Assembly (NCBI GenBank): GCA_963718895.1
Contig: CAVRAG010000008.1
Location: 1,088,001 to 1,152,000, forward strand
DNA length: 64,000 nt
Direction of reading: 5' to 3'
Origin: an uncultured Nitrososphaerota archaeon
GTDB taxonomy: Archaea; Thermoproteota; Nitrososphaeria; Nitrososphaerales; Gagatemarchaeaceae
Shown here: positions 5,087-63,675 of the stretch, in pieces
Layout of the letters: each line of letters opens with the position of its first letter
How positions within the stretch are numbered: the stretch's first letter is position 1
Position numbers and translations under genes: made by a program
The notes under the pieces: generated by a model
What the model was told of the DNA's origin: nothing
Seen by the model: only the letters and a program-made list of their open reading frames with translations
Database searches by the model: none

Positions 5087-5117
5087 AAGTTAGCTGAACG
5101 CAGACTGTTGTCGAGAG

Positions 5118-5207
5118 TGGGCCGGGAGTGATTTGAACACTCGACTTTGGCGGCGACTGCTTTCGCTGTGTAAGAGCGACGTCATAACCAGGCTAGACCA
5201 CCGGCCC
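5118..5207 (-). tRNA. tRNA-Val(UAC) with a 15-nt non-canonical intron at about position 44/45 (5147-5161)
   Basis: Reverse complement reads GGGCCGG-TG-GTCTAGCCTGGTTATGAC-G-TCGCT-CTTACAC-AGCGA-A[AGCAGTCGCCGCCAA]AGTC-GAGTG-TTCAAAT-CACTC-CCGGCCC-A. AT-rich box about 25 nt upstream. Confidence 0.9.
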
Positions 5208-17059: not shown

Positions 17060-17377
17060 GGTGGCAGTCCCGCCGGAGTTCGTCACCTCGGCCTCCCCCA
17101 GTCCCGCACATCCGGCGGTCCCCCACGTAGACGGAGCAGCGTAACCGCGTCACCTTAGGGCTGCTCCCTCCCGGACCTCGCCCGGTTCGGCGATCCAGAG
17201 TCAGAGCCCCTCCTTCGAGGGACCTGCTCCTCACGACCACCCGCTCCGGCGTGAGATCAGCCCGCCCGAGTGCGTAGGTAGAAGGAGAGATGGCTTTACC
17301 CGACGGTTGCTGGCCACTGCGTAAAGCCGGTTTCAGCCTATCGGGAGACGGCTAGCCTCCCTGCCCTACCCGCCACC
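17060..17377 (-). ncRNA. ffs: Archaeal SRP (7S) RNA
   Basis: Helix 8 motif GAACCGGGCGAGGTCC-GGGA-GGGAGCAGCCCTAA; ends GGTGGCGG / CTGCCACC pair; length about 318 nt; TAAATATA about 25 nt upstream. Confidence 0.93.
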
Positions 17378-33386: not shown

Positions 33387-33476
33387 TCTATTGCACTAAA
33401 GAGGCTGGTCGCGGGCACCTAAACTTAAACGTTTTACAGAACAGAAAATGCAAGAAAAGTTGATGGAAGGGAATGG

Positions 33477-33593
33477 GTGCCGGCACTTGGACTTCGCGAG
33501 AGCTCTCGCACCTCACTAACACCCAAGCGACGTGTGGTTTGACGTCTGGGTTCGGAATGAGACCAGGTCGGACCCACACGCTATGGCCGGCTG
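33477..33593 (-). rRNA. rrf: 5S rRNA (stand-alone)
   Basis: Reverse complement GCCGGCCATAGC...CTCATTCCGAACCCAGACGTCAAACC...AGTGAGGTGCGAGAGCTCTCGCGAAG...TGCCGGC. Confidence 0.95.
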
Positions 33594-33644
33594 AGGAAGC
33601 CGTCCTGGCGCGGCTAGATTAACCTTTCCAATCTGCCGAATCCC

Positions 33645-42497: not shown

Positions 42498-43641
42498 CTA
42501 GAGCGCGGCCTCACTCATGGCTAGGGTCAACGCTGAGACAAAGAGCCACCACAGAGCTGTCAGCGCCGCCAGCGCCGCTCTCAGGAAGTCGAGTACAGAG
42601 GACGATGGGCCCGTGAAAGCCAGATCGCCCGTTCCATTCTGAGGGCCCGTGGCGGCCGAGGTGACCGGCTCCGTATTCGTGGATGTGGAACTGGACACGG
42701 TCGTGGAAGAGAGGGAGACGCTCGAGGTCGTGCTCGTCGTCGTGACAGCCGTCGTGCTAGTGGAGGTCGTTTCAGAGGCGGGTGACGCTAGCGATCGCGA
42801 CCTCGGCCGCGAAGTAGCTCGGCAGGGTGCCGTAGGGGTTGGGGAGGCGGTCATCGGTGAAGTAGACGTAGCCCACGCGACCCTCCATCGCACGAAGTTC
42901 GCCCGTTGTCGGTTCCCCCGTCCCATAGGAGATGATGGAGAGATTTCCGCTCGTGTAGCCGGGATAGAGGGTCTGGGTCGAGGTGAGGTTGGGAAGCCCA
43001 GAGTGCTCATAGATGACGATAGTGGTCATCGTCCCGAGGTAGCTCGCTGGTACCAGCGTCCCCGCGTTGCCTGCGGTGAACGTGAAGCCCAGCGACCTTG
43101 CGTAAGAGTCGACAGCTGAGTAATACCCGACGTATCCAACCGAGCTAGCCATCTCGTCGAAGAAGATGCCATTGACGTGATACCACGAAAGGTAGTGAAG
43201 CGCATCCGAGTCCACCTGGTTCATCGGCCTCGCGCCATAGCTCGTATGGTCGTATCCGAGCACCGTGATGCCGGCGGCCTCGAGCTGAGCTATTCCCCGG
43301 ACATAGTTTGGGTCTAACGAATTCCCCGGCCCGCTGTCCGGGTTGACAATCGCCACGACCGCGACCGAAGGATTGGCCTGCTCGGCCTGGATGACCGTTC
43401 TCCAGGTGCTGCCGGGATAGGTGTAGAGCGGAATCATGATTCCCGCGCGTGGGGCCGCTGAGGCAGGGGCTGCTCGCGCAACAGGGTAGCAGACGGAACA
43501 GAGGATCACGGCAAGGAGTAGGACTCGAAGGAGCGGTCTCCTGGGTCCTGGTGGACGCGCCTGAATGAAGCTACTCGATGAGTCGTTTCTCGGGACCGGT
43601 GACGGCTTTCCCTCCCTTTGGACTTCTCTTTCCACCCACAT
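42498..43641 (-). CDS. Spherulin-4-like glycoside hydrolase (GH135) with S/T linker and C-terminal membrane anchor (frameshift near 42780)
   Basis: IPLYTYP, IVNPDSGPG, VLGY, GIFFDE, VIYE, NPYGTLPSY; tail in ORF 42498. Confidence 0.8.
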
Positions 43642-43969
43642 CGCATGTCACCTGTGCCTGCCACCTGTGACTCATCGGCGAGGCAGCGAAGAAAAGAGCA
43701 TCCGAGCAGGTGCTCGCACCTGTGAGCAAATGCGAGCATCCTCTCCCGAGGTTCGAGGCTTCCAAACCCCCAACGGGCACCCAGGGACGAACAATCAGGG
43801 CTATCTGGGAAGCGAGGTTCGGTCGGCTGGTCGAAGGACCCGCCATGCAACTGGGCAACCCGAAGTCCGGTCCCCGCCCGTACTTTGCGGCATTCCGAGT
43901 CGGATGTCCTCCTCGGCTGAACGACCCCATCAGATTCGGCTATAAGATAGCAGTGAGGTATGCCCGCCG

Positions 43970-44316
43970 AGGGGGCGTAGCCTAGCCAGGTATGCTATGC
44001 CGTTTATGTCGCCATATCTCTAAATCAGGGACCTTTGAGCCATGGAGCAGGCTACCCTGCGTAGGCTGCCCGAGAGTTGTCCTCCTCGACGAAGTGCATT
44101 CAATTGGCCCCTAGCTCAGTAGTGGCCTTCGGGCGAAGGCCGATACCATCCGCGTAAAGGAGGTCGGTGACAGGCTCGCCGGTTCTCGTCGCAAAATAGT
44201 GACAGAACCACGGCTGAGGGAAGGTATGGTGGTCATCGTAGGCGACAGACGGCGGCTAGGTACTTATGATCCACTTTAAAGCACGACATCAAAGTCGTGC
44301 ATGTTGGGTCCCCTAC
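43970..44316 (+). ncRNA. Candidate large pseudoknotted ncRNA (about 345 nt), unassigned
   Basis: TATAAGAT at 43941-43948; more than ten compatible helices including a long-range closing stem and a loop pseudoknot; no long ORF inside. Confidence 0.55.
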
Positions 44317-44435
44317 GAGCTGGTCTCCAAATACAAAACAAGAATTGAAACTGCGGATTAGCTTGGCACTAGTGATTTCTCCCGAACCTCACTCATTACT
44401 ACCAGGCGATTTTACGTTTGAAATCATGACACTCC

Positions 44436-45074
44436 CTAGACCGGAACTCGGGGGTGAGCTTGTTCCGCGACCAAGAAAGAGGTCGAGTTTACTGGAATGC
44501 AGAAGGCGAAGCTCGTTTGTGGGCCTGGCGGTGTAGGGAGGGATTGAGTGTACCTACAGTTTTGCCACGACTCCTCTCCGCTACCGGATGTGAGTGGGAA
44601 CCAAATTGTTATGGTGAAGTTCTGGTTCGATGTGCCAGTGATGTCAATCTGTTGGGTGCAACCCTTGGAGGAAGCAGCCGCTGCGGCACAGTTGAACAAG
44701 TACCCGCCAGAAGAGGAGAAACAAGGCGCAGAGTAATTCATGACCCCGTAGCTTATGCCGCATCCTGGGGCGGCGCCCAAATACACCAGGCCGTACCAGG
44801 TGCTTACTGTCGCGGTTGTTGTTTCAGTGGCGGTGCGGGTCTCTGTCGTGCTGAAGTTGGTTTGGGAGACCACAGTTTCCGTTTGATACGATGTAGTAGT
44901 TGTCGTGTAGTTCGTCCGTAAAGTCAGAGTTTGGGTGGAAGTGGACGTGCTAGTAAGCGTACGTGTGGCCGATAGGGGCGAGATTGCCAAAGAGGCGACC
45001 AAAACCACTAGGACGATTGTGCAGGCCAGTAAGGCTACAACAGTTGACTTGATCCCTCTTCTTCGGCGCGTCAA
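44436..45074 (-). CDS. Membrane-anchored extracellular protein with Thr-rich stalk and Cys-rich domain
   Basis: RRRRG|I plus hydrophobic helix, T-rich linker, six Cys in the C-terminal domain; TTG start assumed. Confidence 0.65.
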   Translation of the reverse strand: MTRRRRGIKSTVVALLACTIVLVVLVASLAISPLSATRTLTSTSTSTQTLTLRTNYTTTTTSYQTETVVSQTNFSTTETRTATETTTATVSTWYGLVYLGAAPGCGISYGVMNYSAPCFSSSGGYLFNCAAAAASSKGCTQQIDITGTSNQNFTITIWFPLTSGSGEESWQNCRYTQSLPTPPGPQTSFAFCIPVNSTSFLVAEQAHPRVPV

Positions 45075-45230
45075 ATCCACGTAAGTGTTGACAATGTCAC
45101 TAATCATAAAGACTTTTGTCAGAATTGATTTCGTTTTGGTCATGGTCGTATTCCTCAATCGTAACTTGATTATTTGGTTCCCATGTCAGCAGATAAGAGA
45201 TCATGAAACCACCTGCTTAGGGAGGCCAGG

Positions 45231-46247
45231 CTAGTTGCTTTGACCAAAATCCATGTAGCCTGATCCAGCCGAACAGCTCCCGCTATTGAGTGTGAGGTTG
45301 TTCGACTCTCCTGTGTATCCACCACCATTACAAGTTGCCGTGTCCGAGTTACCATTCAAGTCCCACAAATGGACTTCCACGTACATATATGTCCCGGTGT
45401 TAAATTCTGCTCGGCTCCCTCCTGCAATACCAAACACATTGAATTCACTATATGTCCAATTGCTTGAAGCCAAATTCATGAAGTCCGTAACGGTATTCGT
45501 CCAGCATGTATCTGTGGAGAAGTCGCACATCTTCGAAATGTCATTTCCGTTCTGGCCCGTAATCCCCTCTAGCAGCACACTACCCAAGTGAGTAGGTAAT
45601 TCCGTCGAAGTCGTCGTTGGGCTACTGCTTGCCGCATAGCAACTGGTTTCGCTTCCTACCGTATATGGAGTCCAACTAGTCACTCCGGTTGGGCTACTCG
45701 ATGGGCATGATCCGTGCACGGTGTAATAGTCTATCAAGACGTACTCCATGAATAACGAACCCTCATTTGTGCCCGAACCAAAATTTTGGAAGACGAATTG
45801 CTGCCATGCAGTTACGGTGCCGCTCGTATATGAGGTAGTTGTCGACCAATGGTTGGTGTTTACCTGAAGACTGTATAGGTCGGAGCCTGACGTGTTGTCA
45901 GTTTCTGAAGTCAGGCCGGTGATTCCGCTGAAAAGCCCCTCAGTCTCGCCAATGGCATTCGACGCACCAGCGACCTTATCAACTCCATTTCCGACGACAG
46001 TGAGGGTCGATGAAGGAGTGCCACATGCTGCGGCGCTCCAAGTAGTACTGGGATAACTGATAGAGGAGCAACCTTCGTTCGCTGGGTTAGTCTGGAGCGC
46101 TAGTTGCTCCCATTCGGATTTGGTAATCGTAGTTGCGGACGCCGACAGAACAGGCATACCTACCAAGAGAATTACAAACGCCATTACGGTGAACCTTCCT
46201 AACTTCGTCCCGTATCCCAAGCGGCTCATGTGATTTCTGTGATTCAC
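45231..46247 (-). CDS. Secreted protein with thermopsin-like motifs
   Basis: Signal peptide; YSLQVNTN and AWQQFVFQN resemble the thermopsin SLQLN / W.QNV motifs; several Cys pairs. Confidence 0.55.
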   Translation of the reverse strand: MNHRNHMSRLGYGTKLGRFTVMAFVILLVGMPVLSASATTITKSEWEQLALQTNPANEGCSSISYPSTTWSAAACGTPSSTLTVVGNGVDKVAGASNAIGETEGLFSGITGLTSETDNTSGSDLYSLQVNTNHWSTTTSYTSGTVTAWQQFVFQNFGSGTNEGSLFMEYVLIDYYTVHGSCPSSSPTGVTSWTPYTVGSETSCYAASSSPTTTSTELPTHLGSVLLEGITGQNGNDISKMCDFSTDTCWTNTVTDFMNLASSNWTYSEFNVFGIAGGSRAEFNTGTYMYVEVHLWDLNGNSDTATCNGGGYTGESNNLTLNSGSCSAGSGYMDFGQSN

Positions 46248-52058: not shown

Positions 52059-52121
52059 CTGTAAGACTTGGGTTCATGGCCCTTCATCTTCGCGGTTCAA
52101 TGCAAACGCGTTCGAGAGACC

Positions 52122-52484
52122 TTACCCAAGTTTCCCGTCATTTTCGGGAAAGGTATGGCTGTCATTGCAACCGTTGGACGGCGGTTCGGTGTTTATCCGC
52201 AGTGAAGCTGGGTTGGATTTCCAACTAGCGCGCCGGTGTGGATTACGGCCGCCGACAAAGACTAGCATCATCCCAAGAATACTAAGGGCGACGGAAAGTC
52301 CAAAGACCCAGCCAGAGTAGGCAAGACTTGAGACTGAGCTTGGCCCGAGGTAACTTTGAGGAGAGCTCCGGAGGCTGACCGATCCCGTCGCAACTACCAA
52401 AGCGAACAGGATCATGGCGACACCGCAAGCCAACTCTAACTTCCAACTATACTCGTTGATTCCCGTTTCGTGTTTCAAACTCAA
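52122..52484 (-). CDS. Small two-TM membrane protein
   Basis: Two hydrophobic helices; downstream of the secreted protein at 52648. Confidence 0.55.
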   Translation of the reverse strand: MSLKHETGINEYSWKLELACGVAMILFALVVATGSVSLRSSPQSYLGPSSVSSLAYSGWVFGLSVALSILGMMLVFVGGRNPHRRASWKSNPASLRINTEPPSNGCNDSHTFPENDGKLG

Positions 52485-53444: not shown

Positions 53445-53999
53445 TTGCCCATGGAAACGATAATCCACCACGCCGCAGAACGCCACCAACTTCACCCTGT
53501 TCATGTCAACTTCAAGATTCCGTCAGAAGTGCACAACTCTCTGGAGAGAGCGGCGATAGACGATAAGTTAAGTTTGAATGCACTAGTAAACCAGATTCTC
53601 TCTAGGTATGTCTCGTTTGAGAAGACAACGGTCGACGAACCCGTCTTAATTCCAAAGTTTCTATTCGCCGAACTGATCAAAGCTTTCCCGGAGGAGCAGG
53701 CCAAAGCGGCAGGGGCGCTGTTGGGCGCCAAGCTAAGACAGGATTTTGCTTTCCATGGGATCAGACAAGACTCCCAGGCGATTCTGAATTTTCACCTTCG
53801 GCAGATGGGTGCGTATTCAAGATGGTATAATCTTGAAGTGTCGAGGACCGACGTTCGAATAAGAGCCGCTCTCTTGCATGGGTATGGTCAAAACTGGTCG
53901 GCATTCTTGACCCAGTACTATCAATCAGCCATAAAGGCCGTCACAGGCGCAGATCCTCGAATAGAACATGAAGGCGGCACCATAGTAATCACATTCTGA
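53445..53999 (+). CDS. RHH-like plus HxxG..WS domain regulator (same family as 46943)
   Basis: VNFKIPSEVHNSLERAA....SLNALVNQILSRY; LHGYGQNWSAFL. Confidence 0.7.
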   Translation: MPMETIIHHAAERHQLHPVHVNFKIPSEVHNSLERAAIDDKLSLNALVNQILSRYVSFEKTTVDEPVLIPKFLFAELIKAFPEEQAKAAGALLGAKLRQDFAFHGIRQDSQAILNFHLRQMGAYSRWYNLEVSRTDVRIRAALLHGYGQNWSAFLTQYYQSAIKAVTGADPRIEHEGGTIVITF

Positions 54000-63009: not shown

Positions 63010-63675
63010 CTAGGGCAGTTGGTCTTTCGCCAATCTTGAACTGGCGAACCGGTTGTCGATGAAGAGCCTTTCGATGGACTCCTTGAGCTCCTTATTGTCG
63101 AATTTCCACTCCTCTGGGGAGAAGACAAAGCTGCTTGCCGCACTGTAGAGCAAACCAAGGAAGAAAAATTGAGCTTCGTGGCTCAGCTCGCAATTGTGGC
63201 ACCACGCCTCTTCCGATTGCTTGGGAATGAACTCCAGCGGGATGGTCCTCTTGCTTGCTCTTTCCATAGTATCTTGCAGGAATTTGTGGAAGACTGGGAA
63301 TAGCGTCTTCTCAATCTCGACGCCAAAATTCTCGTCTATCCAATCGCCGAAGCCTGTGTCCAAGATGGCAGGAAGCCACCTTGAGCGTAGGATGTTCCTA
63401 TGCGCCTTGAGTTCATTGTCCCACTCCCTTTCAACAACTCCTCTTTCATGTAGAGCCTTGAGAGTCTGATAGATTATCGATCGCCCAACTCGAATCTTCT
63501 GTTCGCTCAACCTGTCGGAAACCTTGCTCGCAGTCAGTCCTTTGGGTCCTGCTTCCCAGAGGATGTTTATGACGGCGAATGTGGGCTCCTTCGAGAGCCA
63601 CAGCGCTTCGCTCTCGCTCTCCACGGGATAGCTGGAGAAATACCTGTTTTCAAATACCGAGTCCTTTGATGACAT
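63010..63675 (-). CDS. Winged-helix transcriptional regulator with C-terminal CxxC-xxx-H metal site
   Basis: VINILWEAG..GLTASKVS...RSIIYQTLKALHERGVV; WCHNCELSHE. Confidence 0.65.
   Translation of the reverse strand: MSSKDSVFENRYFSSYPVESESEALWLSKEPTFAVINILWEAGPKGLTASKVSDRLSEQKIRVGRSIIYQTLKALHERGVVEREWDNELKAHRNILRSRWLPAILDTGFGDWIDENFGVEIEKTLFPVFHKFLQDTMERASKRTIPLEFIPKQSEEAWCHNCELSHEAQFFFLGLLYSAASSFVFSPEEWKFDNKELKESIERLFIDNRFASSRLAKDQLP

Follow-up and report, generated by a model that had tools for sequence, protein, structure and literature searches.

In the usual islands lodged in tRNA genes, the 3' fragment of the target is displaced while the native promoter stays with the tRNA and, by the principle that Islander relies on, the rebuilt target gene and the displaced fragment mark the two ends of the island (PMC4383910). 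A different mode is found in Thermococcales, where, according to section 18 of PMC8371274 (citing Cossu 2017; Krupovic & Bamford 2008), pTN3-like integrases use the 5' half of a tRNA gene as chromosomal attachment site (attB) and the rebuilt tRNA is expressed from the integrase promoter. According to a survey devoted to thaumarchaeal elements (PMC6563490), 5'-distal recombination is 'considerably less frequent'; the passage concerned cites one case, in Caldiarchaeum. Caldiarchaeum subterraneum has a 5' fragment of tRNA-Thr 1.8 kb ahead of the gene itself, the interval holding a recombinase (PMC3293823). Archaeal insertions into the 5' half of tRNA genes are rare but have been described before. 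The present analysis concerns positions 43941-44330 of a window of 64,000 nucleotides (nt) from an uncultured Nitrososphaerota archaeon. This stretch, presented in the initial annotation as a candidate for a single pseudoknotted RNA of ~345 nt with its own promoter, is very probably the left attachment junction (attL) of a mobile element of ~60.3 kb integrated in the 5' part of a tRNA-Trp gene.

The locus resembles pTN3-like systems in that recombination involves the 5' part of the tRNA, the displaced 5' fragment stands at the far end, and the integrase gene lies beside the rebuilt tRNA with an upstream region supplied by the element. It departs from them by its host, an intron-rich archaeon detected in peat and soil runs, by a core of 25 nt that ends in the D loop, and by an arm of ~320 nt that is a hairpin-rich mosaic of cassettes. 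Membership of the integrase in the pTN3 family is not established because tblastn gave only distant bacterial matches, six in the plasmid collection (~25% identity to recombinases) and none in the phage collection, archaeal reference records being unconfirmed in these collections. The C. subterraneum tRNA-Thr insertion and CalSub-E1 are similar, since an element with a recombinase leaves a 5' tRNA fragment upstream of the tRNA in the rare 5'-distal mode. That element differs by its length of 1.8 kb and by its proposed role as a driver of intron gain, and the passages of PMC3293823 and PMC6563490 devoted to it describe no conserved cassette after the fragment. With tRNA-gene islands in general, the locus shares the rebuilt target gene and displaced fragment at its two ends (PMC4383910). 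A limited literature search met no description of conserved cassettes after a displaced tRNA fragment, and their absence from print is not claimed.

The tRNA-Trp repeat and the promoter left behind

What carries the attL reading is directly observed: a direct repeat, an intact tRNA, an adjacent integrase, a break in composition, an orphaned promoter and a mosaic of separately occurring cassettes (Table 1). The perfect repeat that forms the core has a second, 100% identical copy at C8:1192302-1192326, 60.3 kb downstream on the same strand, and no further copy genome-wide. The distal copy is the start of an intact tRNA (53.4 bits with the Rfam tRNA model), whereas no tRNA is called at 43970. With its acceptor GGGGGCG, its anticodon loop CUCCAG, a 71-nt insert and a normal T arm, the distal gene is, judging from these features, an intron-bearing tRNA-Trp(CCA). 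The initial annotation was right about the tRNA likeness of the first 24 nt, which it took for a mimic of an acceptor plus D-arm, but the segment is an exact copy of the tRNA-Trp 5' end and no mimic. It also correctly reported the absence of a T arm, as the window copy has neither a T arm nor a matching acceptor 3' strand. Of its two alternative readings, the tRNA fragment left at an integration site was borne out by the genome search for a full tRNA with that start, and the split tRNA loses its support because an intact tRNA-Trp exists.

The 71-nt intron of this gene (L010:1502-1642 = C8:1192303-1192443) contains UGAUGA-like box motifs and matches no Rfam family. Euryarchaeal tRNA-Trp introns carry a C/D-box guide RNA, of which these motifs are reminiscent.

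The TATA box and the start AGGGGGCGTAGCCTAGCCAGGTATG at 43970 lie where the initial annotation placed them, but they are not those of a new RNA, as the promoter and the first 25 nt belong to tRNA-Trp. The regions preceding tRNA-Trp were compared at eight loci of relatives. The ~40 nt of the window (cagattcggctataag...) stand directly before an intact tRNA-Trp at four of them (L016, L018, L020, L022), and for this reason the segment is read, on sequence grounds, as a genuine tRNA-Trp promoter that lost its gene. The region upstream of the window genome's own intact tRNA-Trp is different and of the type found at two other loci (L017, L024), and a third type occurs at the last two (L019, L023). 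The intact gene is now served by an upstream region travelling with the integrase. The integrase is encoded on the minus strand by an open reading frame (ORF) at L010:161-1546 (430-461 aa, the integrase itself being placed at C8:1190965-1192254; Phage_integrase, E 2.7e-8), divergent from the intact tRNA-Trp and directly upstream of it. At the other end, the island boundary postulated initially is sharp, as the GC content falls from 0.60 to ~0.50 exactly at 44000 and stays low for 32 kb (0.604 in 43001-44000, 0.535 in 44001-45000, 0.478 in 45001-46000).

In the proposed mechanism, a tyrosine integrase would recombine the attachment site of the element (attP) with the 5' part of tRNA-Trp(CCA), the crossover falling within the 25-nt core, in the D-loop region. 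The original promoter and the first 25 nt would stay on the left, fused to the non-coding end of the element (43995-44314), while the remaining tRNA, 60.3 kb downstream, would be rebuilt by the element's own 25 nt and would gain a new upstream region beside the divergent integrase. The orphaned promoter may still initiate at ~43969 and read into the hairpins, which would give a structured by-product RNA. The first T4 run on the + strand lies at ~44411.

Cassettes and folding of the element end

The non-coding end of the element is composite. Cassette A recurs with 83% identity at C8:1193699-1193845, where it is preceded by a frameshifted integrase and a degenerate Trp core and is not followed by cassette B; weaker, more distant copies occur in G002 and G001. 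At the head of cassette B stands a degenerate 5' fragment from a second tRNA (GGCCCCTAGCTCAGTA, 44106-44121). Homologs of cassette B with 81-85% identity occur in G001, G015, G005 and a metagenome contig, while G010 and G021 hold partial copies; cassette A accompanies none of them. The cassette-B copies all open with 17 nt from the start of another tRNA (GGGCCCGTAGCTCAGTA). In G005, the native promoter and the 17-nt tRNA fragment precede cassette B and the intact tRNA stands 1.35 kb further on; the upstream sequence is that of the same tRNA in the window genome. This is a second case of the same type of junction, decayed and without integrase. The first ~80 nt of cassette B are nearly invariant (10 of 81 columns variable), while all flanks differ. 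As no other locus carries A and B together, the global 345-nt fold has no homolog, and since each cassette occurs alone after a tRNA 5' fragment, this fold as a whole is not a conserved unit. The association of cassette A with the tRNA-Trp core and of cassette B with the core of another tRNA suggests that the element changed or stacked integration modules.

The 3' sub-module of cassette B is shared with short cassettes of ~125 nt in G001 and G011, which have only this part in common and themselves follow a 15-nt tRNA-Trp-like start. Positions 112-164 of the covariance model of cassette B (R1) match alone at three loci of G001 and at 52146-52196 of the window, as well as inside the short cassettes of G001 and G011. 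In G011, the short cassette follows the integrase-side upstream region, the layout that an attP before recombination, or a tandem junction, should show. An older element probably had its left end at the truncated short cassette found within the island.

Across the family, BLAST gives matches in 11 of 97 genomes, mostly to the tRNA piece alone, and R1 in 7 of the 97, all of one genus. Among metagenome contigs, eight exact-word matches include two true homologs, one of them identical to L011. In viral contigs, a 21-nt word of cassette B matched a single contig, inside a coding region and without wider similarity, and the cassette-A pattern gave zero matches. A protein-coding role of the cassettes was rejected, as none of their ORFs has a start codon. 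All five copies of cassette B share an open frame on the minus strand, but this frame lacks both a start codon and codon periodicity, and the 51 variable columns of cassette B distribute as 19/17/15 by codon position, as in non-coding sequence.

Table 1. Features of the left junction and of the adjoining island (window positions).
Feature	Position	Strand	Remark
Native promoter region of tRNA-Trp, orphaned ('P1')	43930..43969	+	TATA box TATAAGAT at 43941-43948, 22-29 nt before the tRNA start
att core, displaced 5' fragment of tRNA-Trp(CCA), position -1 to D loop	43970..43994	+	25-nt perfect repeat
Left arm of the 28-bp interrupted inverted repeat	43973..44013	.	overlaps the att core and the first part of cassette A
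Cassette A, non-coding element end after the tRNA-Trp core	43995..44105	+	no ORF with start codon
Cassette B, with hairpins 44124-44141 and 44178-44214	44104..44279	+	R1 scores 186 bits
3' sub-module of cassette B, GG.AAGGTATGG..GTCAT....CAGACGGCGGCT.GGTA.TTATG.(T/C)CCAC	44213..44274	+	common to the short cassettes
Right arm of the inverted repeat, GGCGACA-GACGGC-GGCTAGGT...	44241..44272	.	
Hairpin GCACGAC/GTCGTGC and CCCCT (can pair with 43970-43974)	44281..44314	+	this locus only; cassette-B homology ends before
STAND-type AAA_16 and TPR NTPase, 859 aa	48959-51538	-	
Short cassette, 5'-truncated, inside the island	52090..52196	+	R1 match C8:1140146-1140196, 24.2 bits
HicB-like protein	53445-53999	+	weak match
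Penicillinase_R-like repressor	63010-63675	-	weak match

Several cassette-B loci show further arrangements around the tRNA fragment. At L012 (G015:C19), ~90 nt after cassette B, a T arm and an acceptor 3' strand (…GGGTTCAATTCCCGTCGGGCCCG) are complementary to the heading tRNA 5' fragment, so that the locus resembles a tRNA in which ~250 nt stand in place of the middle part; neither a tRNA nor a tmRNA is predicted at this position. A tmRNA-like reading of this G015 locus was rejected, ARAGORN being negative and the 3' piece missing from the other copies. At L014 (G010:C2), a 1.1-kb insert (1680-2830) with an ORF for a PIN-domain (VapC-like) protein and a partner ORF is flanked by the direct repeat GGGTCTGGACC and ends beside a tRNA 3' fragment; a miniature of ~100 nt is found in L061. 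At L011 and L053, the tRNA start is in a short tandem duplication (CGGCCCGTA..CGGGCCCGTAGC), 10-15 nt before cassette B and just upstream of the tRNA fragment.

The stretch resembles RNase P RNA, HEARO, GOLLD, ROOL and group I/II introns in size and multi-helix fold, and differs from them by having no covariance-model match at E<=10. Rfam was run with permissive filters at this threshold over 43941-44330 without any match, the only match in 43700-44600 being a chance one to a CRISPR repeat outside the stretch, and at gathering thresholds nothing was found in the stretch. An RNase P RNA or other known RNA was discarded as a candidate, the RNase P RNA of the genome being located at C8:1259792-1260078 (185 bits). 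The short RNase P-T model gave no match above cut-off. ARAGORN detects no tRNA or tmRNA in the stretch, and both ARAGORN and Rfam are negative in the cassette loci. Elsewhere in the window, on the minus strand, Rfam identifies an archaeal SRP RNA (17062-17375, 99.7 bits), a 5S rRNA (33475-33594, 73.5 bits) and a tRNA-Val(TAC) with a non-canonical intron after the anticodon arm (5117-5207).

The helices from which a global fold had been deduced are largely real. Seven of the eight long-range or terminal helices checked pair fully where they had been placed (GCGTAGC/GCTATGC, GCCGTT/GACGGC, TGTCGCC/GGCGACA, GACC/GGTC, TGAGC/GCTCA, ATACC/GGTAT and AGGGG/CCCCT), whereas the pseudoknot is shifted by one base, its partner CTAGCC standing at 43982-43987 rather than 43981-43986; the four local hairpins are all present as given. 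The + strand reaches a minimum free energy (MFE) of -141.2 kcal/mol (z = -3.3), with none of 100 shuffles as good. The initial argument that G-U pairs favour the + strand proved weak, as the minus strand reaches -132.8 kcal/mol with z = -3.97. Because the minus strand folds equally well, folding energy alone does not point to a + strand RNA.

The inverted repeat that joins the tRNA-derived core and the start of cassette A to the end of cassette B has an energy of -39.8 kcal/mol over its 28 bp, compared with -24.3 +/- 4.4 for shuffled 3' arms, of which 2 in 1000 reach the observed value. Among 531 sliding windows of 45 nt over 8 kb, only the right arm itself does so. This right arm departs from the cassette-B consensus (AACCATCAGACGGCAGCTCGGTAT) exactly at the bases that complement the left arm of this locus, and in all cassette architectures the 3' end is complementary to the tRNA-derived start. 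The 5' cores pair with their own 3' ends (-18.6 kcal/mol) and with those of others (-19.2 kcal/mol) without specificity.

Conservation of the helices was assessed on the five full cassette-B copies (alignment A3, leaving out partial L014 and L015 and duplicate L055) and on six short cassettes (alignment A4, leaving out truncated L064); for cassette A, the strands were compared on three of the five rows of A2. In cassette B, the local helices drawn initially, together with a closing helix between the tRNA-like start and 44254-44260, are paired in 87.3% of cells against 28-46% in slid controls, ATACC/GGTAT being the least conserved. Three of 33 pairs are compensatory, compared with 1.0 +/- 0.8 in shuffles, 18 of 500 of which reach three. 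The hairpin at 44124-44141 can be drawn with a C(UUCG)G loop in four of six copies. With RNAalifold, the short cassettes give -26.9 (+) and -23.8 kcal/mol (minus), with 0 of 30 pairs compensatory, and cassette A gives -28.3 (+) and -29.1 kcal/mol (minus), hence no strand preference. The evidence supports conserved local folds and a terminal inverted repeat, and does not tell DNA from RNA; since some helices are conserved in cassette B, a structured transcript may be made. In the mechanism proposed for the attL, the order of the attP would be integrase-side arm, core, cassette A. Cassette B and its degenerate second core would be a relic, or a second integration module, of an ancestor that targeted another tRNA, and the hairpins and the inverted repeat formed with the core would be part of the architecture of the recombination site.

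Weighing the explanations

Several observations weigh against the attL reading. Over the last 28 kb before the integrase, on the right of the 60-kb segment, the GC content is like that of the chromosome, so that the segment may consist of two elements in tandem. No empty site was met at the tRNA-Trp loci examined in relatives: each has an integrase or a different upstream region, so that none is clean. Indeed, three relatives with the native-type promoter (L018, L020, L022) have a full-length integrase upstream of tRNA-Trp, ~84% identical to each other and 37% identical to that of the window genome, and L016, near a contig end, shows only a short integrase start. The left flanks of congeners, 64-70% identical, are too diverged for synteny to define the insertion. 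No contig from four DNA runs spans 43982-44010 without differences; these contigs are short and of low depth, show neither the junction nor an empty site, and are uninformative for the parts they do not cover. Contigs from two DNA runs do span the A/B boundary without differences, which excludes an assembly artefact at 44105, and one spans promoter to core. Among RNA runs, none is listed as containing the stretch, which counts neither for nor against its transcription. As regards arm sites, the integrase-side arm and the 43995-44340 arm have no 8-mer in common and the latter has no direct 8-mer repeat, so that repeated arm sites of the lambda type are not visible. Lastly, the RNAalifold consensus of cassette B is -54.3 kcal/mol on the + strand and -43.6 on the minus strand, which leans to RNA over DNA.

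One rival is possible, though on the whole doubtful: mobile elements would encode structured non-coding RNAs that correspond to the single cassettes rather than to all 345 nt, each read from whichever tRNA-type promoter stands before the tRNA fragment. This would be compatible with an attL, the only difference being the purpose given to the sequence beyond the core: the promoter would be the captured host one in the integrated state and the element's own in the free state, and the 3' end of the RNA would fold onto the tRNA fragment. A promoter-bearing tRNA start does stand before every copy, cassette B is non-coding with maintained helices, compensatory pairs and a preference for the + strand, the C(UUCG)G loop can be formed in most copies, and repeated arm-type motifs are lacking. 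However, the full cassette-B sequences are only five, from one genus, and possibly spread recently, as a gene neighbouring cassette B has 94% protein identity between two genomes; moreover, the short cassettes have no compensatory pair, cassette A has no strand preference, and the pairing of core and 3' end has no specificity. Archaeal RNA polymerase terminates at T runs, and the T5 runs on the + strand of the short cassettes should stop it early. It is rather unlikely that the stretch is neutral debris of serial integrations and deletions, with hairpins as relics of former sites devoid of present function. Its mosaic build, the truncated cassette of the island, the degenerate tRNA cores, and the integrase remnants and frameshifted integrase nearby would fit such debris, whereas the near invariance of the first ~80 nt of cassette B amid differing flanks and the maintenance of its helices would not. 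A bolder proposal, which must be deemed improbable, sees in the cassettes a new class of folded, 'tRNA-headed' elements that terminate archaeal integrative elements and in which the 3' end of a cassette of 125-310 nt folds onto the crossover core. They would act either as a folded, possibly single-stranded, attP or as an RNA from the captured promoter that reports or controls the integrated state; in the window, the right arm would have changed just where needed to pair with the newly acquired tRNA-Trp core and cassette A. Integron attC and the attP of the CTX phage are folded single-strand sites for a tyrosine recombinase, with structure conserved above sequence. The likeness is formal only, an imperfect inverted repeat spanning the crossover region, since the arms here are 100-230 nt apart and there is no sign of single-stranded recombination.

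The single pseudoknotted RNA of ~345 nt (43970-44314), a ribozyme or scaffold of a ribonucleoprotein, with which the annotation of this locus began, is now highly improbable. The MFE of the stretch, the closing pairing of 28 bp far above chance, the locus-specific changes of the right arm that create complementarity and an A/B boundary free of assembly artefact speak for it. Against it stand the two separately occurring cassettes without any homolog carrying both, the tRNA-Trp origin of the promoter and first 25 nt, the lack of an Rfam match, the sparse covariation, the similar folding of both strands with the lower z on the minus strand, and the restriction of the 3' hairpin and AGGGG/CCCCT helix to this locus. 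That the stretch is half of a split tRNA, or belongs to a tRNA gene interrupted by a giant intron, is scarcely conceivable: the genome is rich in multi-intron tRNAs, and the cassette-B copy of G015 is followed by a T arm and acceptor strand matching its 5' fragment, but the tRNA-Trp is intact, the tRNA searches are negative in the stretch and the cassette loci, the window copy ends without T arm or acceptor 3' strand, and other cassette-B copies have no tRNA 3' piece.

The integrated element and its genomic context

Among the six ORFs closest to the junction, no Pfam family is assigned to the four that lie in the island, and those on the chromosome side encode PGK and Spherulin4. Such gene content, with the repeat, the integrase and the break in composition, is typical of an integrated element, except that here the displaced fragment comes from the tRNA 5' end. 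Pfam was also applied to 20 further large ORFs between the repeats; 10 gave no family, and among the rest are a STAND AAA_16-TPR NTPase, a D-Ala-D-Ala-ligase-like and a HicB-like protein, Peptidase_A4, ArdC-N, a TFIIB-like protein, HerA/DUF87, ParB_N and a PBP-like protein. The organism was detected in peat and soil runs.

Paralogs of the integrase with 23-45% identity are encoded in the same genome (G000) at C8:627717-628898, C8:986372-987303, C4:98718-99662, C7:481979-483190, C11:6574-7731, C9:4970-5188 and C5:7399-7938, several of them near tRNA genes. The window genome seems to hold many elements of this kind, and across the genus the 5' side of tRNA-Trp appears to be a hot spot. On the 3' side of the same tRNA-Trp, outside the window, lies a further integrated element, of ~31.5 kb (C8:1192452-1223946). 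It is delimited at C8:1223924-1223946 by a repeat of 23 nt that agrees with the 3' end of the tRNA at 22 positions, carries a frameshifted integrase directly after the tRNA, and has a low GC content from ~1193850; in two relatives, tRNA-Trp is followed by sequence matching C8:1224323 and beyond. A 5' partial duplicate of ~60 nt of a three-intron tRNA (C8:571846, minus strand) is also found 1.4 kb upstream of the intact copy (C8:570403, minus strand), and is possibly another small 5'-side insertion.

With the attL reading, a false lead is removed, the stretch being no new class of ribozyme-sized RNA, and 5'-side integration in a tRNA gene is documented outside Thermococcales, in an uncultured archaeon. 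The tRNA-Trp gene is occupied on both sides, by the 60-kb element at its 5' side and by the ~31.5-kb element at its 3' side, and the insertion is shown to orphan a tRNA promoter and point it into the element. A small family of conserved non-coding cassettes is thereby defined, always located after a tRNA 5' fragment, whose role as a fold of the recombination site or as an RNA becomes tractable.

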